Shown piece by piece: positions 1-40,877 of a stretch of DNA of 64,000 bases (within the stretch, counting starts at the first letter, position 1; every line of letters begins with the position of its first letter). The notes under the pieces were generated by a model. The model was given only the letters and a program-made list of their open reading frames with translations, did no database searches and was not told where the DNA came from. Made by a program: the position numbers and the translations under genes. Source of the stretch: a virus. The stretch is from the IMG/VR virus record IMGVR_UViG_3300025405_000013, positions 6,339 through 70,338 of that record. One strand, 5' to 3'.

Positions 1-4
1 CATC

Positions 5-316
5 ATGACCTCGATGTTCGATTACAACGATGAAGTAAATCTCGTTTTTGATGCCAAGATTGCCGGTAAGAATCTGGTTACCGCCAAGCATGAAGTTCTT
101 ACCAAGACCGGAGAGTTTCTCTTCTTGGCCCACTCTGATCGTGAGTTTGCCTACCGTTGCCAGATGGTAGAAGAAGACATCGAAAATGTTGCCCGTAGAA
201 AGATGTCCACTGTTAGTGATAGTAAGGCCAAGCTAGTTCGTGCTCTACACGAAGAGTGGAAGCTACGTCACGCTTCCTGCCTAGATTGCAAGACTGATAC
301 AAATTTTACCGTATAG
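5..316 (+). CDS. Hypothetical protein; probable N-terminal half of a -1 frameshift fusion with the downstream Cys-rich ORF
   Basis: 103-aa ORF ending ACA AAT TTT ACC GTA TAG. At the window edge, so the true start cannot be confirmed. Confidence 0.7.
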   Translation: MTSMFDYNDEVNLVFDAKIAGKNLVTAKHEVLTKTGEFLFLAHSDREFAYRCQMVEEDIENVARRKMSTVSDSKAKLVRALHEEWKLRHASCLDCKTDTNFTV

Positions 317-2520
317 GCAACCCTGTTAAAGTAGCAGGAGCCTCTACTTGTCAAGAATGCTGGGAGGATGCACTTCCGGACAGTGACTACTGTCAAAAGC
401 ACACTCTCAATATTAGGCCTGAAAGTGCTCCCTATGTACACCATCAAGGGACCCCTGTAAATACCAGGCCCGGTATCTATACTGACCTTAATGACTTCAA
501 TAGAGTTTGGTATCACAATCAAAACTCTAGTCCTGAAGAGCAAGAAAACCAAGGCTTAAGAGTTGCTGGTCCTGAAGAGGCTGACGCTCTAGTTAAGCAT
601 GTTACTAAGGGTCAGTTTAAGACTGCCAAAGACTATCTTAACACTGGAGATGACGTCGATCACAAGTTCCGAGTGCTTAATGACGGTAGTGGTCTAGAGA
701 GTGGTTACAGAAGTCTTAAGAATCACTTGCAGCTATGGCAGAGTGGTGGAGTAACCAGTGATCGAGTCAATAGGCCGGAAGACAGACGTCAATACCCTGG
801 TGGTACAAAGCAAGTACAATTTACTCAATCTACCGACTATGATGATCAAGGTAATCCGGTTGTAGGCCCCGCTCATGTAACTCCTGATGACAGAAATAGA
901 ATGCCTGGTCCTTACGAACCTAATGGTATTAAGTGCATTTTCTGTGGACGGGGTAGAAATCGTCGAGAGAATTCCACCTGGCCTTCTGTGATTCCTGCTC
1001 CTGGTGGTTCTAGTACCGATGGCATCTGTAATCCATTTATTAATGGTGCTAATACTTGTAGGCCTCTAAGAGACAAGTCTGAGCGTAGTATTGTACTTCC
1101 CCCGGGGAGAACATTTAGAGAGAGTTCAACTCCGGCATTGAGTCCCGAAGACTTTGGTACTGGAGCATTTGACTCTATTGCACAACGTGATGAAGTATTG
1201 AGTGGTCGACACTTTAAGAAGTCCCAGGGTAAAAAGAAGGCCAGTCGCTTGGTCTTGGCTACCCAGGAAGAGCTTGCTGAAGAGCTTAGGCCCCAGCCCT
1301 ACCGTTCAGAACTGAACCCTAGTTCTAACCTTTATGACTACAATGATCTAGATGTTACCCATCGGGATACAAGACTTCCAGGTATTAATTTCCATGGTGA
1401 AGATGCAGAATCACTGGCCAACTTGGGTATTACTCAAGAGCCAGAAGGATCCAATGCTGGACCCACTCAACCGTGTCCAGTTTGTGAAGGAGCTTCCGAA
1501 TTCCATGGACGAGAAGTAGGGCACTGCTCTTCTTGTAGACATGACCGACCGGGAGTTGGAGCATGTAAGGAAGGTTCTACCCCCGGACACTGCTACGCTT
1601 GCATAGACCCTGATAGCTGCACTGGAAAAAAGACTTATACCTACCATAGCCCATTAGGAAATGAAGGTTGTCCGGCCTGTAAAAACCGTGGGTGGATTCC
1701 CACTGATGCTGCAAAGTGTGAAGCCTGTGGTGGTAGTGGAGAAAACCTTCACCTATGTCCCAATTGTGATGGAAATGGCTGCAACAAGTGTGACAATAAA
1801 GGCTCCTGCCCGACCTGTAACGGTATTGGGCAACTACCGGGGAGTGGGGAATCCTGCCCGACCTGTACTATTCCGGGTCATGAGCATGTTTGCCCGACTT
1901 GTGAAGGTAATAAGCTTAGTAGAAGTATTCTAGAGAGTCACACGGGAGTTACTAGAGCTCCAGCTCAGTCTATGGGTGAAGAGTCCCCCGAACCTGATGA
2001 GCATGACGAAGGCTTTGGCGAAGACGAAGAGTTTATCCCTGGAAATAGTAACGAATACACTAACGAAGAGATTGAGAACGAGCTAGACCCTGAGGAACAA
2101 GAGGAATATCACCGTAAGAGAGAAGAAGCCGATAGAGCGGCTCAACAAGAGCGTAGACGTCAAGAGAATGAATCACGTATTCGATTTGAAGAGCATAATA
2201 CAGCAGAGACGAGAGCGGGTTGGGGACAAAATGGTGCTATCCCCCTTGCTGACCCCGAAGTGTTAGATCGTTTGCAGAACTCCGTTGAAAAAGAAGAGGA
2301 TGAAGACAACTCGGGAATTACTGGAACTGTTGAAACTCCTCGCAGAGAGGTGAAAGGTTGTAAGACTTGCAACTTTACCGGTAGACATCCAGAAGCTGAT
2401 AGTATTGAGAGAAGCCCTGAATTTAAAGATACAGTAGCTCACTTCCTATCAAAGGGTGACTTCCAGAGAATGAATGAATATACAACTCACATGCTATCTT
2501 GCCCGAACTGTTCTAGATAA
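298..2520 (+). CDS. Large Cys-rich protein with DnaJ-type CxxCxGxG zinc-finger repeats; frame open from 298, not only from GTG 673
   Basis: Frame 1 has no stop from TGA 295-297 to 2518. The extra 125 codons read KFYRIGNPVKVAGASTCQEC...YCQKH. Repeats include CEACGGSG, CPNCDGNG, CPTCNGIG, CKTCNFTG. Confidence 0.75.
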   Translation, partial: YKFYRIGNPVKVAGASTCQECWEDALPDSDYCQKHTLNIRPESAPYVHHQGTPVNTRPGIYTDLNDFNRVWYHNQNSSPEEQENQGLRVAGPEEADALVKHVTKGQFKTAKDYLNTGDDVDHKFRVLNDGSGLESGYRSLKNHLQLWQSGGVTSDRVNRPEDRRQYPGGTKQVQFTQSTDYDDQGNPVVGPAHVTPDDRNRMPGPYEPNGIKCIFCGRGRNRRENSTWPSVIPAPGGSSTDGICNPFINGANTCRPLRDKSERSIVLPPGRTFRESSTPALSPEDFGTGAFDSIAQRDEVLSGRHFKKSQGKKKASRLVLATQEELAEELRPQPYRSELNPSSNLYDYNDLDVTHRDTRLPGINFHGEDAESLANLGITQEPEGSNAGPTQPCPVCEGASEFHGREVGHCSSCRHDRPGVGACKEGSTPGHCYACIDPDSCTGKKTYTYHSPLGNEGCPACKNRGWIPTDAAKCEACGGSGENLHLCPNCDGNGCNKCDNKGSCPTCNGIGQLPGSGESCPTCTIPGHEHVCPTCEGNKLSRSILESHTGVTRAPAQSMGEESPEPDEHDEGFGEDEEFIPGNSNEYTNEEIENELDPEEQEEYHRKREEADRAAQQERRRQENESRIRFEEHNTAETRAGWGQNGAIPLADPEVLDRLQNSVEKEEDEDNSGITGTVETPRREVKGCKTCNFTGRHPEADSIERSPEFKDTVAHFLSKGDFQRMNEYTTHMLSCPNCSR
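301..347 (+). other. Candidate -1 programmed frameshift signal (A AAT TTT plus 3' hairpin)
   Basis: X XXY YYZ heptamer at 301-307 in phase with ORF 5..316. AGGC 315-318 pairs with GCCT 340-343, and CCTGTT 322-327 pairs with AGCAGG 333-338. Spacer is 7 nt. Confidence 0.6.
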
Positions 2521-2528
2521 GAGAAATT

Positions 2529-3122
2529 ATGAGTAGAGTTATTACAGCTGCATGGTTTGCATCAGACAATAGATTTTGCCCCTTAGCAGAGGAACACCAA
2601 AAATGTGGTGTTTGTGGACTTCCTCCACAAATGCATGAAGTCCCGGGAGCAGATATTAATGGACAAAGAATTTCATTTAACCCTCAAGGGCATACTTTTG
2701 CTCCTCCATATAGAGCCCCTGAGGCCGAACGAGTAACTCATAACCCAGATCAACCGTGTGTAGTCGAAAAGATTGTAACTCAACATCCAACTCTAGCTCG
2801 ACTATGGGGCCTAGAGGGTTCCAAATGTAGCTATGGACAGTTACCGGGCAAGGAGTTTAACTCCACACAGCAATTTAGTCATGCTTTTGTTCACAGAGAT
2901 ACAGTTACTCCTTGCTGTACTGCTCATCGCGATCTACTAGAGCGAGAGTTTGGAATGAATTTGGGCAATCTCGGATTGGCTGACATCATCCACTCACTTG
3001 CCTCAGATGCTAGCCCCCATGAAACTCGTACACAAGTTACTATTAATAGAGCAAGAGAGGGTATGCTAACCGCTCAAGAGAAGAAGTGGCTAAATGCCCA
3101 GGGCCAAAGAGGACCACAATGA
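2529..3122 (+). CDS. Hypothetical Cys/His-containing protein
   Basis: 197-aa ORF with GAGA RBS and CGVCGLPPQMH motif; stop overlaps next ATG (ATGA). Confidence 0.75.
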   Translation: MSRVITAAWFASDNRFCPLAEEHQKCGVCGLPPQMHEVPGADINGQRISFNPQGHTFAPPYRAPEAERVTHNPDQPCVVEKIVTQHPTLARLWGLEGSKCSYGQLPGKEFNSTQQFSHAFVHRDTVTPCCTAHRDLLEREFGMNLGNLGLADIIHSLASDASPHETRTQVTINRAREGMLTAQEKKWLNAQGQRGPQ

Positions 3123-6100
3123 AATTTCGTTTTGTTAAGAGTTCAAACACAGAAGACACCTGCCAGGCTTGTGGACTTACCGAGGCCCAACACCCGGAAA
3201 CCCACCTTATCAATCCTGATGTTGGTCCTCACGCATTTATTACCACCCAGCACAGTCATGAACTAAAAAAGAATTGCTGGTTACATGACGAAGCAGGCTT
3301 TGGTGATGCTTTTGGACGTAGTGCCCTTGGAGAAGAGTTTCCAGACCGCATTAATGTCATTAGCCCTTCACGTGGCAATAGGTGGTTTAAGTCACAGACG
3401 GTAGAAACTGAGGCTCGTCCTGACAAGAAGGTAAAGGAACTATGTAAGATTCACGGTCGTGAGTGCAGAGGGAAGATTAACCCTGACGCTCGTGAATTTA
3501 AGCTACCTGACCCAGAATGTGCACCTGGTGCTCCTGTTATGAAGAAGAATGATGATGGTTCACTAGAGCAAGTGGCAGTTGGTATGGGTGATGGCCGTGT
3601 TAAGCCACTTCCTGGCCAATTTCGCACTTGTTCAACTTGCGGTGGTAGTGGAACACGTACTATTAATGACAAGAGTGGTACCAGAGAAGGACCCTGCTTA
3701 AGTTGTAAGGGTAGTAAGGTACAAGACACAGACGTAGACGGTTACTACCCTTGTGAAAACTGTGTACACTCTGACGATGAAGGAGTCCGAGTTTCTACCG
3801 GAGAGCTATTCTCCACCCCTGACAACACTCACAAGCCTTGTGGTGGTAGAGGTTGGCGTGAAAGACTAAGTATCGGTCGTGGAACCAGGTACAAGAAGAA
3901 TACCACGGGTTTTGGTACACCTGTGTTTTCTATTAGCTGCCCCCACCATGATGTTATTTATAAGTCACTGCCTAACCCCGACTGCCCGGTCTGTAAGGGT
4001 ACGGGTGAGCATCAGGGTAAAGAATGTCTTTGCCGAGCCACTCACACTGGGCTTGGTGCAAACGGTAGTGCTCTCCCCGAAGGCCTAAGAGGACATATTC
4101 CACTAGCATGGATGGCTCGTTTTGCTGGTTCTCCCACTCGTTTTGTTGATACTAGTCTGTCGCCTAATGCTACTCATGCAGAAGGTATTGGCGCTGATCT
4201 TAATGACCCTGCAACTCGTAGGTTCCTTACACCTATTCAACGACTTAAGGATATGAATAAGTGGCCTCGCACTGACCGAGCACTCCCCGTCAAGTACGTT
4301 AAAGATCCAACGTCTGGCTCTCTACCAGGCAACCCCAGTGCTAGACCAGAAGTGGGACCATTATTCCCCGGTAGGTCAGTTAAGGTCGGCTACCTAACCC
4401 CAGGATTTGATTGGCAACACCCGGATGTACAGGGAGCTATGTCCGGAGCTAGTAGTAATCAAAAGCCCGGTCGTTGGACTCTAGGCCATTCTCTTACCAG
4501 TCTAAGGCGTTTGATCAATAGTCGAGGTTCTCTCCCCCTAGAAGTGCCAGGACCCAATCCTTATGGAGAAGATGGCACTCGCACTAAGATTAGTAGAACA
4601 CTGCGTAGAGTCTTTAACCGACGATTTGCTATGCAACCGCCTACTGATGAAGAAGACCCATTTGCAACTCCAAGCCCATATGGCACTTCAACTCAATCAG
4701 TCGGTGATAAAAAAATTATAAAGCCCCTCGGTGAAGAAGTCACTGAAGTTAATGGACCCATTAGAACACTTAAGCCGGATACTCCTGAATACCAGGACCG
4801 TTTGGACTCTATTAACGAGCGTGAACGTGCAATGAGACTTATGGGAGTTCCTCCTACTCGACAAAAGAGTGATGTTGACCGTCAAAATGCTGTAGATACA
4901 GTTGGAGACTTTCGTAAGTTAGTAGATGATAGAACTAATGAGGTTAAGCATCAAAGCCCATGTGAATGTGTTCAAACTCAAAGCTGTCACTGCACTAAGG
5001 GTGGCACTCTAAGTCCCAGACGAGGATGTGGTTCTTGTGTAGGCACCGGAAATAAGCTTGTAAGTAACCCACAGAGTGACTGTGCACTATGTCATGGACT
5101 TGGCTATACTCCAGAAGCCGGTAATAGCTACCTAGGTGGAGATGCTATAACCACTAGAAATACTCAGCGTAATATCCACGAAGAAGTATGTCAGCCTGGT
5201 GGATTTACCGACAGTATGCATCCACTTCCGGGTTGTGTTGACCAATGCCCCAAGAAAAAGTGGTGGGACCAGGCTCGTAAGGCTCTTATGGGTCGTGGTG
5301 AAAACCAGCAAGATGTACCGGGTCTAAGCAAGCCTCGTGGTCGTGATAGAGGCCGTAGAATCCTACGATCTTTTACCCACCCCAAGAGTTGGCAAACTGG
5401 CCCTGAACGAGTTGACGGGTCATTTAGGCCACTTCCTGAAGCACTAGAGATGCACTCTAATCATGACTCTAGTGATGGTCACATGTGTACTCCTGGACAC
5501 TTTGGCCGTATATTTAGTGAGGGTAATCCCCACCCGTATATTTCTACGGGTAATAGCACTCTGGGTATGGTTCTAGGTAATGACGCTTGTGAACACTGTC
5601 AAGGTCAAGAGGGCGGTTGTGAACACTGTCACTACACTGGTGATAGTCAGTCCGGTATGATTCGTGTTCTTCAAGCCTACATCCCGTCACGTGATCGTGA
5701 AGACCCGACACGAACTGATCAACTTGATCCATTCTCTCGTGCAATAACTGATACGAGTTTTGGTGGGCCTAGAAGACAACCCAATCCCGATACTGTCCGT
5801 CCGAGTGATAACTGGCACTACAACATTGTTAGTATGCACCACAGCCACTTTGCACACATTAATAATGCCATCCTTCCTAGTCTCCTAAACTTTGGAGAGC
5901 GTAAGGTTGTAGACCGTGCCGGTAACTTCGAAGGAAGTCACTTTGGTAAGGATTACGACCCCAACAAGGAAGTTAGCGGTCGTGAGCACATGATCGCCGA
6001 TAATCCGTTTGCTGAACACCATCTTCGTGAACTAGCAGTTACTGGTGGGCAAAATGGTGATGATGAAATTAAGTCTTCGGTTACTAGACTTCTAAATCAG

Positions 6101-6394
6101 GCCGATGAAGCCAGTAGAGGGACTGCCCCTACTGTAGCCCCTAGAACTCCTAGAAGGCCCAAGAAGGACAAGACAGTTAAGACGGTTAAGTCGGACATGT
6201 CTCCAGATGATGTAGTAGGCCACATTGAAGGCCACTTGGGCCGAGGCCTAGAACCACATGAGCAGTTTGAAGTGGCTTCTAGACTCTTCCAAGGCCATAA
6301 GCCTCAGCACATTATCAATGACTTTAAGAGTCGTAATGCACAGAGTCCAACTACTGGAACTACTGCCAAGAGAAAGTTTAACAGCCGCGTATGA
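3119..6394 (+). CDS. Large Cys-rich protein with CxxCxGxG zinc-finger repeats (start more likely ATG 3119)
   Basis: CSTCGGSG, CLSCKGS, CPVCKGTG, CGSCVGTG, CALCHGLG, CEHCHYTG. AGAGGA RBS and ATGA overlap at 3119. Confidence 0.8.
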   Translation: MKFRFVKSSNTEDTCQACGLTEAQHPETHLINPDVGPHAFITTQHSHELKKNCWLHDEAGFGDAFGRSALGEEFPDRINVISPSRGNRWFKSQTVETEARPDKKVKELCKIHGRECRGKINPDAREFKLPDPECAPGAPVMKKNDDGSLEQVAVGMGDGRVKPLPGQFRTCSTCGGSGTRTINDKSGTREGPCLSCKGSKVQDTDVDGYYPCENCVHSDDEGVRVSTGELFSTPDNTHKPCGGRGWRERLSIGRGTRYKKNTTGFGTPVFSISCPHHDVIYKSLPNPDCPVCKGTGEHQGKECLCRATHTGLGANGSALPEGLRGHIPLAWMARFAGSPTRFVDTSLSPNATHAEGIGADLNDPATRRFLTPIQRLKDMNKWPRTDRALPVKYVKDPTSGSLPGNPSARPEVGPLFPGRSVKVGYLTPGFDWQHPDVQGAMSGASSNQKPGRWTLGHSLTSLRRLINSRGSLPLEVPGPNPYGEDGTRTKISRTLRRVFNRRFAMQPPTDEEDPFATPSPYGTSTQSVGDKKIIKPLGEEVTEVNGPIRTLKPDTPEYQDRLDSINERERAMRLMGVPPTRQKSDVDRQNAVDTVGDFRKLVDDRTNEVKHQSPCECVQTQSCHCTKGGTLSPRRGCGSCVGTGNKLVSNPQSDCALCHGLGYTPEAGNSYLGGDAITTRNTQRNIHEEVCQPGGFTDSMHPLPGCVDQCPKKKWWDQARKALMGRGENQQDVPGLSKPRGRDRGRRILRSFTHPKSWQTGPERVDGSFRPLPEALEMHSNHDSSDGHMCTPGHFGRIFSEGNPHPYISTGNSTLGMVLGNDACEHCQGQEGGCEHCHYTGDSQSGMIRVLQAYIPSRDREDPTRTDQLDPFSRAITDTSFGGPRRQPNPDTVRPSDNWHYNIVSMHHSHFAHINNAILPSLLNFGERKVVDRAGNFEGSHFGKDYDPNKEVSGREHMIADNPFAEHHLRELAVTGGQNGDDEIKSSVTRLLNQADEASRGTAPTVAPRTPRRPKKDKTVKTVKSDMSPDDVVGHIEGHLGRGLEPHEQFEVASRLFQGHKPQHIINDFKSRNAQSPTTGTTAKRKFNSRV

Positions 6395-7423: not shown

Positions 7424-8029
7424 ATGTTTAAGACTAGAAGAACTGAGATCGTTTCTATCCCCGTAGAAGAGATCCTTGAGGTTAAAGAACCGATTGTAGA
7501 AACTCCCAAAGTACAGTCGGTTAGTAACATAGAATTTCTAACAGTAGATGCTACTGCAAATGAAATTTCTAGTGGTAAGCTTATCGACTATGATAAGAAC
7601 ATTTACCGCTATGACTGGGACCACAAGTCCAAGCGTATTATGAGACTAACCGGTACTGAAGTGAACAAACTCACTTGGGATCTAGCCAATCGAGTTCTAG
7701 AGAAGTACTTTATTAAACCAGAGCCGGTTAAGCCCGTAGAGAGTGTATCTAGTCAAATAGAACGCAATCTAAGGCCGGTACAAGAGATGGTGCGGGGTGT
7801 AGAAGGTAAACTAGATAAGTTACTCCTTCGTCCGGTTACTCCCACTGTCTCAACCCCTCGACCAGCTCCAAGCTATCCAGCGCCAACTACAGTACAGTCT
7901 AGTCAATCTGCAGTTAATATGGATACTCCGGCCATTTCAGTTGGAGATGACCAAATAGCAGCAAATGCTATGAAATTTTTACAAGAATCCCAGGGACAAG
8001 ATCTCGGTATTGACTACTTGAGTCTATAG
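7424..8029 (+). CDS. Hypothetical protein
   Basis: 201-aa ORF in tight operon packing. Confidence 0.7.
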   Translation: MFKTRRTEIVSIPVEEILEVKEPIVETPKVQSVSNIEFLTVDATANEISSGKLIDYDKNIYRYDWDHKSKRIMRLTGTEVNKLTWDLANRVLEKYFIKPEPVKPVESVSSQIERNLRPVQEMVRGVEGKLDKLLLRPVTPTVSTPRPAPSYPAPTTVQSSQSAVNMDTPAISVGDDQIAANAMKFLQESQGQDLGIDYLSL

Positions 8030-8037
8030 GAGCAGAC

Positions 8038-8796
8038 ATGAATATTGCAGAAGGTAACGGCCCTAAGCAAGTTAAAAGAACGTGGCCTACAGGCCAGTTT
8101 GTTAGTATTTACGGCAATGGTAGTCAAGCCAATGTTAATCCAGCTGCTGTACCCTACCCCGCTGCTTTTAGTGGTGGCCAAGTAGGAGCTATTAGTGGTA
8201 GTAGTAGTACCATTAACTACACGAGCCCTGGAGCTATGAACCCTGGCCTTAATCTTAATGTTAATGGTAATGCTGCTCTTGATGTAAGTTTTATTTGTGC
8301 TCCAGATGCAGCTGTAACACTTCAAGATATTCAATCAATTACTGTCGCTCTCAATGCAGAAAGTGGTTGGAGTGGTACTTCTGCTGTAGCACTACAGGGC
8401 ACTTATGACCGCTATACTCCTAATGCCTACTATACTTCAATCTCCGGACTCTACAACTCCACTAACTGGACAACGATTGTAACCGGTTCAGTTACTACTG
8501 CTAATAGTACTGTACTTCTTAAGGTTCCGGTTGCAAGTGGCGTCTTCTATAATGCCTATAGAATTATCGCTTCTGGTGGCACCGGTATTATCGACTGGAC
8601 AATTCCGGGTATGTTCCTTGACCTTAGTGCTAAGCAGGTTGGCCAGGAAGCCATCTGGGCTAATGGCAATATTGGCCAGGCCAATATCCAAGACAACGAC
8701 GTTCTTATGATCTCTGGTGGAGCTGTAGCAGGCTATACTGAAAATGTTCCTCCACTAAGTAATATCCAGGCCAACACCAACTACATCGGCCGTTAA
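8038..8796 (+). CDS. Putative virion surface protein (low charge, SG-rich)
   Basis: GGAG RBS; beta-rich Ser/Thr/Asn/Gly composition like the tail proteins. Confidence 0.65.
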   Translation: MNIAEGNGPKQVKRTWPTGQFVSIYGNGSQANVNPAAVPYPAAFSGGQVGAISGSSSTINYTSPGAMNPGLNLNVNGNAALDVSFICAPDAAVTLQDIQSITVALNAESGWSGTSAVALQGTYDRYTPNAYYTSISGLYNSTNWTTIVTGSVTTANSTVLLKVPVASGVFYNAYRIIASGGTGIIDWTIPGMFLDLSAKQVGQEAIWANGNIGQANIQDNDVLMISGGAVAGYTENVPPLSNIQANTNYIGR

Positions 8797-8824
8797 AAAA
8801 TTAATATACTATACTGGAGACATC

Positions 8825-9016
8825 ATGGAGAGAGAACAAAGAATTCACAAGACAGCTTCACGTACTGTAGTAAGCACTAACTGGACTCTGGGTGGTGACA
8901 AGATCCTACTAGTAGAGGGCGGTGGTGGTATTATTCGTCACTCTGGCGGTGCTGGATTTTACGGATGTGGTTGTGAACGAATTGCCGGAATTGATTCTTG
9001 TAGTTGCGGCTTCTAG
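8825..9016 (+). CDS. Small Cys-containing hypothetical protein
   Basis: GGAG RBS; 63 aa with CGC...CSCG. Confidence 0.6.
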   Translation: MEREQRIHKTASRTVVSTNWTLGGDKILLVEGGGGIIRHSGGAGFYGCGCERIAGIDSCSCGF

Positions 9017-9029
9017 ATAGGAATAGTTA

Positions 9030-12000
9030 ATGTCTTCCAAGGACTGGAGTGCTTCCACCGAATTCAGTAGAATGAAAAAGGCCGGAATCACTCTTCCCAA
9101 GAACCCGATTGCCAGTCGAGTGGCAGCACGGGATATGCTTAATAGAGCTAAAACGAGTGGCTCTATGGCCAGTGAGATTGGTCCTATGGCTATGGCCATG
9201 GGTGGGCCTCCGGAAGGTCGTCAAAGACTCAATAACCTCAAGCAGGGTTTTAGTCTAGAGGGTATGGCCAATACCCCAAATCGTAGATTGGGTGCTGCTA
9301 GTGGTTCAGACGCCCAATGGGCTTGGCCCAAGCTACATGACCCATTTGAATACTGGCGTGAGCGTACGTGGTGGTTCAATATGGAGGACCCCGATGAGCA
9401 AACGAGAAAGATCCGAGATTGGGCTCGTCTACTTTATACTACTCACCACTTGGTACCTGGTCTTATCGATATTTATACTAGGTTTCCACTTCTAGACGTT
9501 GAACTTATCCACCCGGACAAGAGAATTAGTGAATTCTATAATGAGCTGTTTTTTGACGGCTTAAATTATAACGAATTTCTATTCGACTTGGGCCGGGAGC
9601 ACTGGACAGTAGGTGAAGCTTTCGCCATGGGATCCTGGCATGATGGTTTGGGTGCCTGGGAAGAAGATGAAATCATTAACCCCAATGATGTCATTGTTGC
9701 CAAGAATCGTGCCCTTAGAACATACCAATACCACATTAAGGTTCCCGACGAGATTAAGAAGCTTATCGAGCGTAGAGATCCCCCACAAGAGTATGCTATG
9801 CTTATGCAAATGTACCCGGATGTTGTAGCCTGGGCCAGACAAGACAAAGAGATTCCGGTCTCTGATGTCATTATGAAGCAACTTAAGTTTAAGTGTGTAA
9901 CTCCCGACACTGACGTACTTACACCTTCTGGACCAGTACCAGCTGGAAAATTGAAGGTTGGGGACCCAGTTTTTGCCTGGGACACTGAGAATGATAGAGC
10001 TGTAGTTAGTCATGTACAGGCAAATAGTCTACGTGAGCCCGAAACTGTAGTCAAAATTACTACAAAGTTTGGTCGTACTATTAAGACGACTCTTGAGCAC
10101 CCATTCTGGATTAAGAAGACTATTAAATCAGAAAACACATGCTTGGCCTGTAATAGAACTTTTGACAATCCTAAGTCAAAGGCAGGCCATATTGGTGGTT
10201 CTAAAAACGGTTCAAACCCCCACTATTTCCCGGCTAGTTCTATAAGTCAGGAATGGGTACAGGCACAAGATCTTAAGGTTGGAGATCTAGTACGTGTTGG
10301 CTCCCATTGTAGTTTTGGTTCAGAATTCCTAGACCCAGACCTAGCTAGATTTATTGGAATGATGATTGGTGATGGTTCATATACTAATTCTGACTTTAGT
10401 ATAACTAGTAACGACCAAGAGATAGTAGACTGGACTAGAGAGTTCGTAGATAAGTATGACTGCTCTATCCCCGAAATGGCCAGTTCATCTTTGCAATACA
10501 GAATCAAGTCCAATGAAAACTCGGGTAAGAGAGCCGGAAAGACGGGGAGCAATAAGTTAATCAATCTCTTCCGTGAAGTTGGTATATTTGGCCAAACTTG
10601 TCATAATAAGATAGTTCCTCAGATTATTTGGGAGAGTGGTCCCCAAGCCTGGTGGAACTTCCTATCGGGCTACCTGGACACTGATGGTTGTTTCTTTGAT
10701 GGAGACTACCCCAGAGTCTACTGGACTTCCAGTAATGAGGGACTGTTAAACGACGTACAGTTAATGCTATCTTTACTTGGAGTATCTAGTACTTTAAATG
10801 ACGGTTGTGTAGTAGTACAAAATCATATTGGTCTATCAATTCTTTCTGAAAACTTAGACACTCTCCTGCCTAGAAAGCAAGTACATTCGAGGGAAGTAGT
10901 TAAGAATGTCTATAAGGATACAGTTGAATGGGACGCCGTTGAGAATATCGAAGTAATTGGAGAAGAAGTAACTTGTGCTCTAAGCATTGCCGACTACCAT
11001 AGTCACATTACTGCTGGTCTTGTAACCCACAATACCAACCCGTGGAGTGAGCATGGTACCCCGATTCTTCTTAGAGCTTTTAGAATGCTTATGCTCGAAG
11101 AATCCCTTAATGCTGCTCAAGACGCTATTGCTGACCGTCTATACTCTCCTCTTATTCTGGCTACTCTTGGTCTTCCTGATGTAGACCAGGACGGTCCATG
11201 GATCCCGGATGCTCAAGAACTCCAGAGCCTAAGAGACGACCTGGCCATGGCCATTAACTCGGACTTCCGACTAATGACCTATCACCACGGCCTAACCATC
11301 CAGAACGCTTTTGGTCGTGAAGCAATGCCTCGACTAGACCAAGACTTTATGAGAGTACAGACCAATGTTATGGGAGTATTCGGTATTGGTGCTGACCTTA
11401 TCCAGGGTGGTCAGGGTGGTACTTATGCTGCTGGTGCTCTTAATCGTGAGCTTATTACCCAGATGCTTTCTACCTACCAACACAAGATTGAAGCATTTAT
11501 TCGTTCTCGTATGGAACCGGTTGCCGAAAGACAAGGTCACTATGAGTTCCGTAATGTAGGCGGCCAAAAGGTTCCGATTATGGAAACTGTACTTATGGTC
11601 GATGAAGAGACCGGTGCTGAATATGTAGAAGAGCGTCCAAAGCTGGCCATTCCGGAAGTCAGATTTCGTAGTATGAACCTAAGAGATGAAACCGTAGAGC
11701 GTGGCTTCCTACAGCAACTACAGGCTTCCGGGTTTCCGATCTCTCTTGGCACTCTTGCAGTTAATATCCCCATTGACTTTGATGATGAAGTAGAAGCTCG
11801 TAAGAGTGAAAAGATCAAGACGGTTGTTGCTGAACAACAGTACAAGAAAGAACTCTTCGACCGACTAATGACTCTGCAGTTGCCTATTCCGCCGGAATAT
11901 ATGCAGGAATACCAGGCCTATCTAATGATGATGGAAGATCCGGCAATGGCAGCTCAATTAGCTCCAGGAGCTATGGCCGGTCTTACCGCTATGCCTGCTG

Positions 12001-12536
12001 CTCCCAATATGACCGGTGGTAGTCCGGGGAGTGATGTTAGTCAGATTCCCGATATGTATCCGAGTATGGCTAATGCCACTCAACAAAGACAGCGGCCTGA
12101 AATCTCTTATGAACAGAGAAAGAGTGCTCCTAAGCCATCTAAGAAGGGCCCTAAGAATGGACCTCAAAAGAAGGCCAGTGCCGAGAGTGACATTACCAGT
12201 AACTTCGGTGAAGGCTTCAATGAACTAGATGGAGTTCGTGTAGAGTATGGTGGACGCATGAAGTTCGCTAGCCCTATTGAGAGCAAAAAGCGTAAGCGTA
12301 TGAAGCTAGCCAAGGGCATGAAAATTGTCGTAGATGATAGCTACGAAAAGTTCTCGGAAGATGAGTTCAAGGAGCACCTGGCTAGTGTAATTGAGTCCAG
12401 TGATACCTTTATCCCCAGTGGAACTGAACACCCGGGTATAGACCCTATGGGTGCCGGTAACCACGGTAGTGGAGATGGTAGTAGCATGGACCTTCCTGAT
12501 CGAGAAAAAGCCAACCCCACTGATATTCCCGAATAA
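9030..12536 (+). CDS. Portal protein interrupted by an intein
   Basis: Located upstream of protease/scaffold/capsid. Portal-like segments IRDWARLLY, IDIYTRFPL, GEAF, PWSEHGTPILLRAF. About 788 aa after splicing. Confidence 0.8.
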   Translation: MSSKDWSASTEFSRMKKAGITLPKNPIASRVAARDMLNRAKTSGSMASEIGPMAMAMGGPPEGRQRLNNLKQGFSLEGMANTPNRRLGAASGSDAQWAWPKLHDPFEYWRERTWWFNMEDPDEQTRKIRDWARLLYTTHHLVPGLIDIYTRFPLLDVELIHPDKRISEFYNELFFDGLNYNEFLFDLGREHWTVGEAFAMGSWHDGLGAWEEDEIINPNDVIVAKNRALRTYQYHIKVPDEIKKLIERRDPPQEYAMLMQMYPDVVAWARQDKEIPVSDVIMKQLKFKCVTPDTDVLTPSGPVPAGKLKVGDPVFAWDTENDRAVVSHVQANSLREPETVVKITTKFGRTIKTTLEHPFWIKKTIKSENTCLACNRTFDNPKSKAGHIGGSKNGSNPHYFPASSISQEWVQAQDLKVGDLVRVGSHCSFGSEFLDPDLARFIGMMIGDGSYTNSDFSITSNDQEIVDWTREFVDKYDCSIPEMASSSLQYRIKSNENSGKRAGKTGSNKLINLFREVGIFGQTCHNKIVPQIIWESGPQAWWNFLSGYLDTDGCFFDGDYPRVYWTSSNEGLLNDVQLMLSLLGVSSTLNDGCVVVQNHIGLSILSENLDTLLPRKQVHSREVVKNVYKDTVEWDAVENIEVIGEEVTCALSIADYHSHITAGLVTHNTNPWSEHGTPILLRAFRMLMLEESLNAAQDAIADRLYSPLILATLGLPDVDQDGPWIPDAQELQSLRDDLAMAINSDFRLMTYHHGLTIQNAFGREAMPRLDQDFMRVQTNVMGVFGIGADLIQGGQGGTYAAGALNRELITQMLSTYQHKIEAFIRSRMEPVAERQGHYEFRNVGGQKVPIMETVLMVDEETGAEYVEERPKLAIPEVRFRSMNLRDETVERGFLQQLQASGFPISLGTLAVNIPIDFDDEVEARKSEKIKTVVAEQQYKKELFDRLMTLQLPIPPEYMQEYQAYLMMMEDPAMAAQLAPGAMAGLTAMPAAPNMTGGSPGSDVSQIPDMYPSMANATQQRQRPEISYEQRKSAPKPSKKGPKNGPQKKASAESDITSNFGEGFNELDGVRVEYGGRMKFASPIESKKRKRMKLAKGMKIVVDDSYEKFSEDEFKEHLASVIESSDTFIPSGTEHPGIDPMGAGNHGSGDGSSMDLPDREKANPTDIPE
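9894..11033 (+). mobile_element. Intein (380 aa) with LAGLIDADG homing endonuclease
   Basis: Block A CVTPDTDV; block B TTLEHPF; FIGMMIGDGS and FLSGYLDTDG motifs; C-terminal GLVTHN followed by Thr. Confidence 0.93.
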
Positions 12537-37154: not shown

Positions 37155-37682
37155 ATGATTTCTAAGAATAATGCTGGAACCTGGACGGAAGATCAAAATT
37201 CTGTCCAGGTTCCAGCCAAAGACACTAGTTTTCCAGAAGAGTGGAAGCAAGAGTTCGAAGGCCTTCTATACCTCGGTTATCTCGAGAAAGAAGTCACTCA
37301 TATTCCCTTCCACCATTTTGTAGTTAGAACACTTACAGTGAACGACAAGCTAGAAGTATCTCTTCTTACCAAACCGTTTGCTGAAACCCTGGGTTACGGT
37401 AGAGCTTATAAGTCTGCTGTTGTAGCCGCTGGTCTAGTAAGTGTAGATCATCAGAGTCTACTACCCACTCTCAAGACCGTTAATGGTGTTAGACAAAAGT
37501 ATGAATACGTAGTCAATAACTGGTATGATGCCGTAGTTGACGTTCTTTTCCAGGCTATTGATGATCTAGAGAACCAAGTGGTACTGGTTCTTGAAGCATT
37601 AAACATTATCGAACTTCCCAAGGCCTTTAGTGTCTTTGAAAAAGATAATGAGGAAACGGATAACCCAAAAGATACGAACTAG
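37155..37682 (+). CDS. Tail assembly chaperone (short form)
   Basis: Between tube and tape measure; ends AAC CCA AAA GAT ACG AAC TAG. Confidence 0.8.
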   Translation: MISKNNAGTWTEDQNSVQVPAKDTSFPEEWKQEFEGLLYLGYLEKEVTHIPFHHFVVRTLTVNDKLEVSLLTKPFAETLGYGRAYKSAVVAAGLVSVDHQSLLPTLKTVNGVRQKYEYVVNNWYDAVVDVLFQAIDDLENQVVLVLEALNIIELPKAFSVFEKDNEETDNPKDTN

Positions 37683-38110
37683 ATCCCTACGTAGTATTTC
37701 ATACTGAGTTGGCCTATGAAAGAGGCCTACTACAGAGTAAGGACCCTAGTGAAGTACAAGAAAAGCTTCTTAGAGTGTATGTCACTCGAAAAGCCGAACA
37801 AAAAATACAGATGGAAGAAACCAGATTTGAACAGGACTTGTTGATTAATCAACCGGAAATGTATCGAGAGTGGAAGAAGCATCAAGAAGAGAATAAAGAG
37901 AACGAAGACATCGTTTGGGGCTTCCCACAAAGCATTGAAGAAGCTCGTGAGATCGAAAAACTTATTGCTCAAATGGAGCAGCAGAGTGTACAGACTGCTA
38001 AAGCTCCAGACGAAGGTGTTGTAATAGTTGACACTCTGGGCAATAGACTCAATACCCTAGAAGCAATACCCGGACTAGACCTAGACCAACTTGGAGAGAC
38101 TGATGGCTGA
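37155..38110 (+). CDS. Tail assembly chaperone long form via -1 frameshift at C CCA AAA (37664-37670)
   Basis: The -1 frame is open from 37664 (RYELDPYVVFHTELAYERG...) and joins the 37709 ORF; established G/GT arrangement. Confidence 0.8.
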
Positions 38111-40877
38111 TATTCCTAATGGCGATAATACAGAATCAGTAAATTTTAGAATTGATGGTGATGCCACAGGCCTCAAGAGAGAGCTAGGTGAAGCCGGTCG
38201 TATAGCCGGTGAACTAAATGACAATCTTAGGGCCGGAGAAAATGCTGTTAGTGGTATCATCGAACGCTTGATCAAGCTCAAGGGTGTTCTCAAAGATGAT
38301 GATGAACTTGCAGATAACTTTAAGTCCATTATGGAGACTGCAGGAAGCTTTGTAGAGAGCACTAACTACTCTCTATCACAAGCAGTTCAAAATATTAGAG
38401 AACTACTGGTTACCGCTAGTAAGCTAGGGGTAAATGGTAATAATGTTCTCGGAGTACTTGGTGGTATGGGCTTTGGTGGCCTAGGTGGTGGTCTAGGTGG
38501 AACTTTTGGTGACGCTAACCTAATAAACCTACTGTCTAACCTAGGTGTAACCGGGAATGTCGGGTCCAATCAGTCCAACCCTAATCTTCGAGAGAGAACG
38601 GTAAACGGCTCCCCAGAGAGTGTTGCAGATACCGGTTATTATAGACGAACAGAGATTAAGGGAGGCCGTCAACGAGCCAGAACCCTCTTTGGTGGACGAC
38701 GTAATCCTCCCCCACCTCCAGGAGGACCCGTCCCTCATCTTTCTGATGATGATGACGAAGATCCATTTGCTAGTGCTAGTGCCAGTAGATGGGGTACTAC
38801 TAGTGTTCGAATAGGGGATAGCTTTCGGTCTACGGGTAATGCCACTATTGACAATTTTGCCAAAGCCTACCCCGAACTCTATAGGACTATGCTAGAAAAT
38901 GGAGAACTTCCTTCAGCTCGGCCGGCTAGAGATGTACTCTTACAGCGTCAAAAAACTGTAGATGCTATCTTTGGACAGAGAAGCACTGCTGGAAGATTCT
39001 TTCGTAATCGTATTAGGAATCAATTAGAGCAAGAAGAGCGTCAATTTAAAGCTTCTGGTGATGAAGTTATCTACGGTGGCCGACGTTTTAGTACCCCACC
39101 GGTTTCAGGGTATGAACGAGAAGTTTATACAAAAGTAGAGCAAAGAGTTCTCGGTAGTGCCAATGAAGGATTGGGCAAGTTTCTTACCGGACTAAGTGAC
39201 AGTGCTCTAAGATTAAGTGAGTTTGGTAATGCTTTAACATTCGGCTACCAGGCTGCTAGACAGGCAATGGCACCAGTTCAGCAGCTTATGCAGATTTCCG
39301 AGCAGTATGGTAGTGTAAACGGAAGTAACAACCCTATGCGTGCTCTAGGGCTTGGTTTGCAAGCTCAGTTTAAGTCGGGATTTGGTTTTAACCCGTTTGT
39401 AAACTCACAGCAAGTGGCACAAGCTCAAATGGCCGGTTTTGGACTGGGCTTTAATAACAATAATAGTGCCTATGTCTCTTATGCCATTAACGCTCAAAAT
39501 CGTTATGGTATGACCGGTCAGACGTCTGCTCAATATGCCCAGACCGGTTTGGCCGCTGGCATGAACCTTCAGCAAATTAATGCTATGGTTGGCGGACTTA
39601 TGATGTCTACCCAGGGCACTAATACCAGTACCTCTTGGCTTAACTCAACCGCTCAAAGTGCAGTAGCTCAATTTGGTGCTGCATACGGTAATGTAGGTGG
39701 AGCCGGTGGAGCAATTGCCGGTGGAGCAACTGCCCCCGGTATGAATGACCAAACTTTGCAGGCAGCAGGAGCAGCCGGTAACTCGGGTTTGGCTAGTGGT
39801 AGTCCCATGGCCTTAGCCTGGTTGAGTAAAACTCTCGGTATTCCATATATGCAAGTACAGGGCACTGTAGCAAATATGATTCAGAAGAACCCTGCTCTAT
39901 GGAATCAGCTTAATCACCAGTATGATATGATGGTTCTAAAGATCGCTATGGGTGGCTCAATCCCTCCAGGTCTAAAGCAATCGGACTTTGCTGCTAAATA
40001 CACCGGTATGTTAACTGCCATTACTCAAAGTTACGGTTATCCATCTGCCCTAACCAGTAATGCTACTGCCCTAATCGACTACTTCTATAAGATCTATACC
40101 AACTCTAGTGCAACTGCTCAGACAAATGCCAATAAGAATATGTCCAGTACTAGTAGAGCCGGAACTGGTGGAATTTTGGGTGGGATTGGCAACTTCTTGG
40201 GCAATCTAGGGAGTGATGTTAGTTCGGTGGCTAGTGCTGCTGGAGACTATGTAAATTCTGCAGTAGTAGCAGTTGGTGGTGGAGCAATTGGTGCAGTAAC
40301 ACAAGCAGTTACTCTAGGGAACTATGGACATGGCATCTGGTCTAACTCAATGAATGAAGCACATAGCTCTCTCACCGCCGGTAATAATGCCGTAACTTTT
40401 GTTGCTAGTAATATTGCTACCGGAGAAATTCTCTCTAGTGCCGTACAAAATCAAGCAACACAAACCATGAAGAGTTATGCTGGAAATGTACAGTTCCAGG
40501 GCAGAACTTGGACTTACGATAACTTTATGAAAATGGTTCCCAATGCACAGCAATTGCTTAATGACGGTATTGCAAAGGTACAGGGCTATAGTGGTGGAGC
40601 TTACCAAACCTATTCGGCCTTCCTACAGCAACACGGTTTTACAGGCTTAAATAGTACAGTTGCTGCACAAGCAAGTACTCCTAGCTACTTGGCCCCGGGA
40701 TCTGTAAACTTTGGTGGAAACGGCAATAACGTTACTGTAACTTTTGCCAAGGGTATGAATAACGTACTAACTCAGATTGCTAATGGCAACTCTTATGTTG
40801 GGCAGACTTCTACTTATGGTTATATTACCGCTAATTCAGCAGTTGTCCCCGGAGCTAATGGTGGAGCCCGAGGCTAA
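38103..40877 (+). CDS. Tape measure protein (start probably ATG 38103)
   Basis: Long Ala/Gly/Gln-rich helical ORF after the chaperones; GGAG RBS. Confidence 0.8.
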   Translation: MADIPNGDNTESVNFRIDGDATGLKRELGEAGRIAGELNDNLRAGENAVSGIIERLIKLKGVLKDDDELADNFKSIMETAGSFVESTNYSLSQAVQNIRELLVTASKLGVNGNNVLGVLGGMGFGGLGGGLGGTFGDANLINLLSNLGVTGNVGSNQSNPNLRERTVNGSPESVADTGYYRRTEIKGGRQRARTLFGGRRNPPPPPGGPVPHLSDDDDEDPFASASASRWGTTSVRIGDSFRSTGNATIDNFAKAYPELYRTMLENGELPSARPARDVLLQRQKTVDAIFGQRSTAGRFFRNRIRNQLEQEERQFKASGDEVIYGGRRFSTPPVSGYEREVYTKVEQRVLGSANEGLGKFLTGLSDSALRLSEFGNALTFGYQAARQAMAPVQQLMQISEQYGSVNGSNNPMRALGLGLQAQFKSGFGFNPFVNSQQVAQAQMAGFGLGFNNNNSAYVSYAINAQNRYGMTGQTSAQYAQTGLAAGMNLQQINAMVGGLMMSTQGTNTSTSWLNSTAQSAVAQFGAAYGNVGGAGGAIAGGATAPGMNDQTLQAAGAAGNSGLASGSPMALAWLSKTLGIPYMQVQGTVANMIQKNPALWNQLNHQYDMMVLKIAMGGSIPPGLKQSDFAAKYTGMLTAITQSYGYPSALTSNATALIDYFYKIYTNSSATAQTNANKNMSSTSRAGTGGILGGIGNFLGNLGSDVSSVASAAGDYVNSAVVAVGGGAIGAVTQAVTLGNYGHGIWSNSMNEAHSSLTAGNNAVTFVASNIATGEILSSAVQNQATQTMKSYAGNVQFQGRTWTYDNFMKMVPNAQQLLNDGIAKVQGYSGGAYQTYSAFLQQHGFTGLNSTVAAQASTPSYLAPGSVNFGGNGNNVTVTFAKGMNNVLTQIANGNSYVGQTSTYGYITANSAVVPGANGGARG

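Follow-up and report, generated by a model that had tools for sequence, protein, structure and literature searches.

Programmed −1 ribosomal frameshifts of phages are annotated almost only in tail-chaperone genes. Elsewhere, T7 gene 10A/10B specifies a frameshift-extended capsid protein, and in Lactobacillus phage A2 a −1 frameshift reportedly extends the major head protein. The tail-chaperone type, exemplified by lambda G/GT, is annotated in thousands of SEA-PHAGES genomes according to PMC10885494. Here we consider a gene at the start of a 64,000-nucleotide (nt) stretch of phage DNA (hereafter the window), which corresponds to bases 6339–70338 of the 70,338-bp contig IMGVR_UViG_3300025405_000013 in IMG/VR. 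In this gene, a conserved domain of 100 amino acids (aa), specified by an open reading frame (ORF) that we call ORF A, would be joined to a 737-aa zinc-finger-rich extension lying in the −1 frame. We put the probability at about 0.75 that a programmed −1 ribosomal frameshift yields a 103-aa protein together with an 838-aa fusion, a reading that rests on the layout of the site and on its recurrence in a second phage lineage.

Like the tail-chaperone G/GT system, the locus has an in-phase X_XXY_YYZ heptamer with a frame-0 stop a few codons later, and would give a short product plus a C-terminally extended fusion. It differs from that system in that ORF A belongs to another gene and module, upstream of the portal, and matches no tail assembly chaperone (TAC) family; in that the extension, at 737 aa, is far longer than the T domain; and in that the site is found in two (perhaps three) sub-lineages only rather than family-wide. 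With the A2 head protein and T7 10A/10B it shares a shift outside the tail chaperone, a C-terminal extension that would be carried by some copies and a position near head genes, but those are capsid proteins with short extensions, whereas the short product here is just a 100-aa domain. The resemblance to IS3/IS911 OrfA–OrfAB and dnaX, as described in PMC4066793, lies in the heptamer followed by a stem-loop 5–9 nt 3′ and in translation setting the product ratio. Unlike IS911 and dnaX, no upstream Shine–Dalgarno (SD)-like stimulator is visible here and A_AAU_UUU takes the place of the A_AAA_AAG heptamer; in the case of dnaX (tau/gamma), moreover, the shifted product is the short one, whereas here it would be the long one. 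The canonical combination of heptamer and hairpin in −1 frameshifting is already known; what is new is the gene family and a 21-nt cassette reused at non-homologous positions. In a limited search, the literature found on frameshifting at this heptamer, on PRFect and on phage frameshifts does not describe such a gene.

Layout of the site in the window

The features of the locus, with window coordinates, are as follows.

5–316, + strand: ORF A, frame 0, 103 aa, a helical N-domain (residues 1–96) and a tail ending in ...CKTDTNFTV before the stop
295–297, + strand: −1-frame stop TGA, which bounds the shift window on its 5′ side
296–316, + strand: 21-nt cassette GAT ACA AAT TTT ACC GTA TAG, identical in the lineage of contigs L025, L026, L027 and L029
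301–307, + strand: putative slippery heptamer A_AAU_UUU, in phase with ORF A
307–2520, + strand: −1 frame extension, 737 codons plus stop, Cys-rich
311–347, + strand: predicted stimulatory hairpin, a core at 315–343 with outer pairs 311–313/345–347
314–316, + strand: frame-0 stop TAG, two codons past the heptamer and at the hairpin's 5′ foot; an ordinary stop in this genome
673–675, + strand: GTG, the first canonical start in the −1 frame and a possible additional internal start, with a product of 615 aa

ORF A begins at ATG 5, the first start following an upstream stop (checked in the 70,338-bp contig), and ends with TAG 314–316. From 298 the −1 frame stays open as far as 2520 (740 codons), with no ATG, GTG or TTG before GTG 673; the two frames overlap only at 298–316, and a run of 125 codons in the −1 frame is start-less. 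This run is unique in the genome: in each of the remaining plus-strand open frames of at least 90 codons, the start-less run is 22 codons or fewer. Scored with a codon model derived from 47 long genes of the contig, the start-less 298–672 reaches +0.153 log-likelihood per codon in the −1 frame against −0.41 and −0.92 in the remaining frames, and the value for ORF A is +0.158; the start-less stretch, having gene-like codon usage, is therefore of coding character. It also holds a zinc-ribbon motif, CQEC...CQKH, of a kind present in the extensions of relatives. Across 307–2517 the three frames contain 0/24/105 stops, the −1 frame alone being open, and the extension displays many CxxC and CxxCxG motifs, an acidic stretch and a C-terminal CxxC...RSPEF...MLSCPNC. 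By arithmetic from the sequence, the predicted fusion has 101 + 737 = 838 aa, with the junction ...TDTNF/YRIG.... Upstream of GTG 673 there is no SD-like motif, by a crude test that finds one in only 24 of the 47 genes. Reassignment of TAG was considered and rejected: TAG terminates 16 of the 47 long genes, and the extension lies in a different frame. Gene callers split the gene into 103-aa and 615-aa proteins and so lose the 125 codons, and it is exactly these two fragments that are found in the database.

AAATTTT at 301–307 is the sole in-phase XXXYYYZ sequence within the overlap. Such sequences occur 190 times on this strand (0.0027 per nt), and the chance of finding one in the overlap, with about four in-phase positions, is about 1%, to be multiplied by about 1–3% for the hairpin. 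A_AAU_UUU is used by several eukaryotic RNA viruses. Sharma et al. (PMC4066793) count the H_HH.U_UU.Y class, to which it belongs, with the most efficient E. coli heptamers, and they emphasize cognate re-pairing in the A site. The fold of 308–360 predicts a stem of AGGC 315–318 with GCCU 340–343, an inner 7-bp stem of 322–328 with 332–338 and the three outer pairs, with a predicted stability of −15.5 kcal/mol and a z score of −2.7; none of 200 shuffles folds equally well, and the hairpin ranks in the top 1.3% among 23,431 45-nt windows of the genome. Counted from the heptamer, the AGGC stem begins after a spacer of 7 nt and the weak outer pairs after one of 3 nt. A scan of 1–3000 against Rfam gave no match at E values up to 1. 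The locus hence combines what is looked for in a canonical −1 site—an in-phase heptamer in the overlap, a start-less coding −1 ORF and a predicted 3′ structure at 5–9 nt.

In the proposed mechanism, ribosomes translating ORF A would arrive at A_AAU_UUU 301–307 with tRNA-Asn and tRNA-Phe occupying the P and A sites, respectively, and would be paused by the hairpin, the core of which begins 7 nt 3′ of the heptamer. A fraction would slip back by one base, with Phe re-pairing cognately on UUU and Asn on AAA at two of three positions, and would then read the −1 frame through to 2520. The unslipped ribosomes would translate two more codons and stop at TAG 314–316. The products would be a 103-aa protein that is essentially the N-domain and an 838-aa fusion of the 101-aa domain with the 737-aa Cys-rich extension. 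That ribosomes slip here, how efficiently they do so, that the two products stand in a fixed ratio and that the fusion is produced are all inferred.

The split is present in independently assembled DNA. We compared window 1–2600 with the Logan contigs of four sequencing runs (X1–X4), which were assembled independently, and found neither a differing letter nor a gap. The whole of 1–2600 is covered by X1 (depth 23), which may be the source run. The site is bridged unchanged by X1, X2 (1–600) and X4 (157–367), and the X3 contig (58–324), which stops 17 nt beyond the heptamer, agrees. The sequence-only reading, in which the frameshift was originally proposed, is accurate in its account of the letters—the ORF at 5–316, the −1 frame open from 298 with no start until 673, the heptamer, the hairpin and the protein-like character of the skipped 125 codons—and the one-nucleotide indel error that it wished to see excluded does not appear, as far as these contigs go. 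Transcriptional slippage and phase variation were rejected: there is no length variant among the contigs, and neither is expected of runs as short as 3 A and 4 T.

The cassette in a second lineage

The 21-nt cassette recurs without a single change in four IMG/VR contigs from four metagenomes (L025, L026, L027 and L029), which form a second lineage. Their proteins, of 402–425 aa, consist of the N-domain and a Gly/Ala-rich tail and end in ...KESKDTNFTV. The cassette is at a non-homologous position in the two lineages, namely at about codon 396 in the second lineage versus about codon 97 in the window. If the first codons are set aside, the two genes share no longer exact word. Its flanks have nothing in common between the lineages, and the N-domain DNA is 70% identical, with 45% identity at third codon positions. 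Judged from this comparison, the 21-nt identity is not simple common descent of a neutral stretch, because the flanks share nothing and the N-domain DNA is just 70% identical. An exact search of IMG/VR with 18 nt of the cassette returned only the same four contigs.

The surrounding layout recurs as well. In the second lineage, the −1 frame opens just 5′ of the heptamer and runs for 181–417 codons (one contig ends early), without a start for 175–186 codons. Stops per frame are 0/21/24, 0/19/29, 0/18/30 and 0/9/15 in the four contigs, with the −1 frame alone open, and it has been kept open despite block replacement and indels among them. A hairpin predicted in the L026 lineage lies 6 nt past the heptamer (−19.9 kcal/mol, z −2.9 to −3.2); it is unrelated in sequence to that of the window and falls in the top 0.2% of 8,513 50-nt windows of second-lineage loci. 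No GGAG or AGGAGG stands about 10 nt before the heptamer in either GATTGCAAGACTGATAC (window) or AAGGAATCAAAAGATAC (L026). As a control, we inspected bacterial genomes, in which a degenerate form of the cassette has 17 chance matches; at all 17, the frame-0 ORF upstream is 16 codons or shorter. A functional recoding signal, rather than a mutation in one phage, predicts that the heptamer with its spacer and stop, the placement of the hairpin and a start-less −1 ORF should all recur. A signal that recurs in a different sequence context offers comparative support without experiment, and it suggests that recoding cassettes are reusable within a fast-evolving family. On balance, the −1 frameshift put forward by the sequence-only reading gains support from the second lineage.

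A third lineage may have the same kind of site. Among the matches listed for the N-domain in protein databases, 16 of 158 proteins stop exactly two residues past DTNF. Four of these end in DTNFTV: the window's own protein and P0091, P0098 and P0135, of 311, 402 and 405 aa, which end in ...KDTNFTV. The other twelve (P0096, P0141, P0143, P0145–P0152 and P0154), of 324–472 aa, end in DTNFIG (...LLKGSNDTNFIG) and may constitute the third lineage, known here as proteins only. For the underlying DNA, a scan of IMG/VR with P0150 gave only the L026 lineage at 44–57% identity, a guessed 17-nt cassette gave 19 unrelated loci and a degenerate 21-nt pattern, searched for in bacterial genomes, gave the 17 chance hits. 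The two 17-nt matches that are followed by a stop, L078 and L083, were rejected as third-lineage sites, not being family members. L083, an IMG/VR contig of 114,915 bp, is unrelated to the present gene, but its 700–4000 contains a tape-measure-like region that table 11 fragments into numerous short stop-to-stop frames, and stop-codon reassignment in that phage is suggested.

A second copy of GAT ACA AAT TTT is found inside the −1 segment at 5306–5330 of L026, and likewise in L027 and L029 (from 5276), where it is in frame (...SNDTNFIKDG...). There, a −1 slip would hit TAA after one codon, and a truncated product might be possible. The hairpin 3′ of this second copy in L026 is not significant (z −0.85). 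Under the doubtful proposal of a portable recoding module (below), such in-frame copies of the heptamer might work in the opposite sense, and a nested set of products would then come from one message.

The N-domain family and its extensions

The N-domain (ORF A residues 1–96) is 56–81% identical across 39 IMG/VR loci, which represent 24 distinct proteins. The 158 database proteins containing it, again among the matches listed, comprise 38 of 56–172 aa and 120 of 173–837 aa. Its AlphaFold2 model is a helical bundle (pLDDT 78), for which Foldseek retrieved nothing from the PDB at an E value of 0.001 or better; the best score in the ESM Atlas (0.79) was uninformative. ORF A and the extension match no Pfam or PHROG family, and tblastn of the N-domain against GenBank phages gave no match. 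Beyond an invariant CxxC, the family proteins diverge fully, with tails that are Cys-rich, Gly/Ala-rich, Pro/Thr-rich or Lys/Pro/Asn-rich and that range from a few residues to about 740 in length.

The N-domain and its extension are specified by a single ORF at 12 of the 13 loci of one set (9 distinct proteins, including the 102-aa protein of L013) and in many of the 120 longer database proteins in the same list of matches. With N-domain plus extension in one ORF as the family plan, the predicted fusion would therefore recreate the family architecture. The plan of the 432-aa in-frame protein of L003 and L015 resembles the predicted fusion particularly in its zinc fingers, acidic stretch and C-terminal CxxC...RSPEW...MLNC. 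The closest relatives, L016, L017 and L053, have an N-domain 81% identical to that of the window. By comparison of these loci, the downstream part is present in three states—as a separate gene, as an in-frame fusion and, in the window, in the predicted −1 frame.

The tails also vary over short distances. L001 and L016 versus L013 and L053 are otherwise near-identical phages, which differ by a clean 240-nt in-frame deletion: through it the N-domain protein (182 aa versus 102 aa) lacks its Cys-rich tail of 80 aa. Judged by these genomes, the Cys-rich tail is therefore dispensable, or exchanged, in nature.

As a guess at function, the N-domain could be a constant N-terminal "anchor" that carries variable cargo. 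A bolder proposal, which we make only tentatively and consider doubtful, is that the 21-nt DTNF cassette might be a portable recoding module that sets the ratio of bare anchor to anchor–cargo fusions in this hypervariable family. Under it, the family would include separate genes (L016, L053), in-frame fusions (L015, P0088, P0142) and frameshift-linked forms (the window, L025–L029 and perhaps the 12 DTNFIG proteins). The family also offers a natural series (separate, fused and frameshift-linked) for asking why a phage would fix a ratio of short to long product.

Weak similarity connects the family to large proteins of actinophages. The N-terminal ~100 aa give a weak fold match to these proteins (Foldseek E 0.03–0.06, probability 1.0, TMq ~0.6), and in hhalign the N-domain aligns with gp81 of Mycobacterium phage Alice over residues 18–63 versus 22–67 at a non-significant E of 0.037 and a probability of 1.4%. 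Alice gp81 (7791–11501 in that genome, our L111) is a hypothetical protein encoded two genes before the portal. The large proteins of cluster C mycobacteriophages (Alice gp81, 1236 aa; Shifa, 1192 aa) and of Rhodococcus phage Finch (799 aa), the latter two as BFVD models, are specified at a similar place near the portal, and Alice gp81 may be a distant counterpart of the N-domain plus extension family. Unlike the N-domain gene in the window, the Alice, Shifa and Finch genes each consist of one ORF, and the region inspected carries no frameshift annotation.

Competing explanations and genome context

Several observations weigh against a programmed frameshift. First, 19 of the 24 distinct IMG/VR proteins require no frameshift, and L028 leaves its contig before the site is visible. 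The sequence-only reading had counted homologues in one in-frame ORF as evidence against itself and had looked to related genomes for conservation of heptamer, stop and hairpin: the former applies to those 19 proteins, from which the site is absent, but L025, L026, L027 and L029 carry the cassette, with the site conserved in this second lineage at another position. Second, the closest relatives, L016, L017 and L053, encode the homologue of extension residues 197–560 (30% identity over 379 aa) separately, in a downstream gene that starts at a GTG of its own; this arrangement makes it plausible that in the window, too, the downstream part is expressed independently, from GTG 673. Third, a close relative with the same Cys-rich extension was not found in IMG/VR, in metagenomes or in a 5.8-billion-protein set: the pattern search of IMG/VR gave five matches, none related, the metagenome scan a single weak and unrelated locus (L014) and the protein search, with 8000 candidates scored, only the window's own 615-aa fragment. 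Blastn against GenBank phages likewise gave no match. Fourth, in-frame homologues show DTNF as a motif of the protein itself, namely P0088, P0104 and P0142 as well as L026 at its second site; in P0088 and P0104, SNDTNFTKSAG directly follows the N-domain in frame. Part of the nucleotide identity could hence reflect protein constraint and codon bias, and the argument from that identity is somewhat weakened because DTNF is also a protein motif. Fifth, the window hairpin is moderately stable, and folding 280–360, including 28 nt of upstream flank, reduces z to −0.96; the fold signal is therefore confined to the hairpin itself and not the wider region. Sixth, the known heptamer efficiencies come from E. 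coli, and this phage probably infects an actinobacterium. Finally, X2–X4 have depths of just 2.9–4.3 and contigs hide rare variants, and the four runs, being freshwater metagenomes of the same year, may belong to a single campaign.

The alternative that survives best, though we regard it as unlikely, is a fixed frameshift mutation: one nucleotide would have been lost in the A3/T4 runs, only the 103-aa protein would be made, possibly along with the 615-aa product from GTG 673, and the start-less 125 codons would be a young relic. Indels do arise in homopolymer runs, and there are natural short forms of the protein—102 aa by deletion in L013 and L053, and 97–117 aa in several database proteins—so that loss of the extension would therefore seem to be tolerated. 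The separate gene of the closest relatives fits this explanation too, and no diverged relative with the same extension was found in our searches to show purifying selection. However, the 740-codon frame and its codon usage are intact, and a mutation leaves unexplained the combination of an in-phase heptamer with a top-1.3% hairpin, the identical 21-nt site elsewhere in another lineage with a hairpin at the same distance, and an open −1 frame of 400 codons that has survived the indels of the four contigs.

Termination-coupled re-initiation at a non-canonical ATA (313–315, forming "ATAG" with TAG 314–316), which would give two separate proteins, appears distinctly improbable. Its appeal lies in the GTATAG that belongs to the cassette conserved in both lineages, in ATGA-type coupling elsewhere in this genome (for example, ATG 3119 with TGA 3120–3122), in the separate-gene layout of relatives and in the third lineage also stopping two codons past DTNF. 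Yet ATA is a very poor bacterial start codon, no SD-like motif precedes ATA 313–315, and its place at the foot of a stable hairpin would hinder initiation while fitting a frameshift stimulator; re-initiation also leaves unexplained why, in three places, the very nucleotides of the heptamer are conserved.

A sequencing or assembly error in a gene that is really one in-frame ORF has a nearly negligible chance: homopolymer sites are error-prone on some platforms and most homologues are in frame, but X1, X2 and X4 bridge the site identically, X3 agrees, no other gene of the contig has a broken frame, and the four second-lineage contigs share the frame structure, which therefore makes an artefact unlikely. 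A hop of the gene-60 kind from GTA 311–313 to GTA 331–333, possible in the window, was rejected, since L026 is without a matching landing codon and a hop hence cannot explain the shared cassette.

The favored reading, a programmed −1 frameshift in ORF A, places a recoded gene upstream of the portal gene of a myovirus. The 70,338-bp contig has 44% G+C and genes all on the same strand, including those for a tail sheath, baseplate J, a tail assembly chaperone and a portal with an intein, and the runs carrying this DNA are freshwater metagenomes. The major capsid protein is 64% identical to its counterparts in cluster C mycobacteriophages; the phage is related to these, and its host is therefore probably an actinobacterium. 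The tail chaperone has a recoding site of its own. In its gene (37155–37682, phrog_2792), C_CCA_AAA at 37664–37670 is in phase, with the −1-frame stop TAA 37661–37663 just 5′ and the frame-0 stop three codons 3′; the −1 frame (gene 37664–38110) is open to 38110 and adjoins a 928-aa gene at 38091–40877. This is the same layout as that of the A_AAT_TTT site at 301–307, and with the chaperone site separately located, the claim in the sequence-only reading that 301–307 is a second recoding site outside the tail module is borne out. The remaining gene overlaps in the window were rejected as frameshift sites, with starts nearby and no shift required. This also holds for the junction at 3086–3122, which is ordinary, with ATG 3119 overlapping TGA 3120–3122.

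Directly after the extension, 2529–6394 contains two further Cys-rich genes of 197 aa and 1091 aa (the latter from ATG 3119), which belong to no Pfam or PHROGs family; distant homologues of both (28–36% identity) lie 3′ of the N-domain gene in L016 and L053. The portal gene (9030–12536, 1168 aa) is split by an intein with a LAGLIDADG homing-endonuclease domain (LAGLIDADG_3, 41.7 bits; Intein_splicing, 35.7 bits against a cut-off of 35.8), and the portal match picks up again at residue 665. In the early region 5′ of the window, contig 1471–1986 codes for a ferritin-like (Dps-type) protein (PF00210, E 1e-18), and two phage tRNA genes, Arg(tct) and Val(tac), are situated at window 60088–60298.

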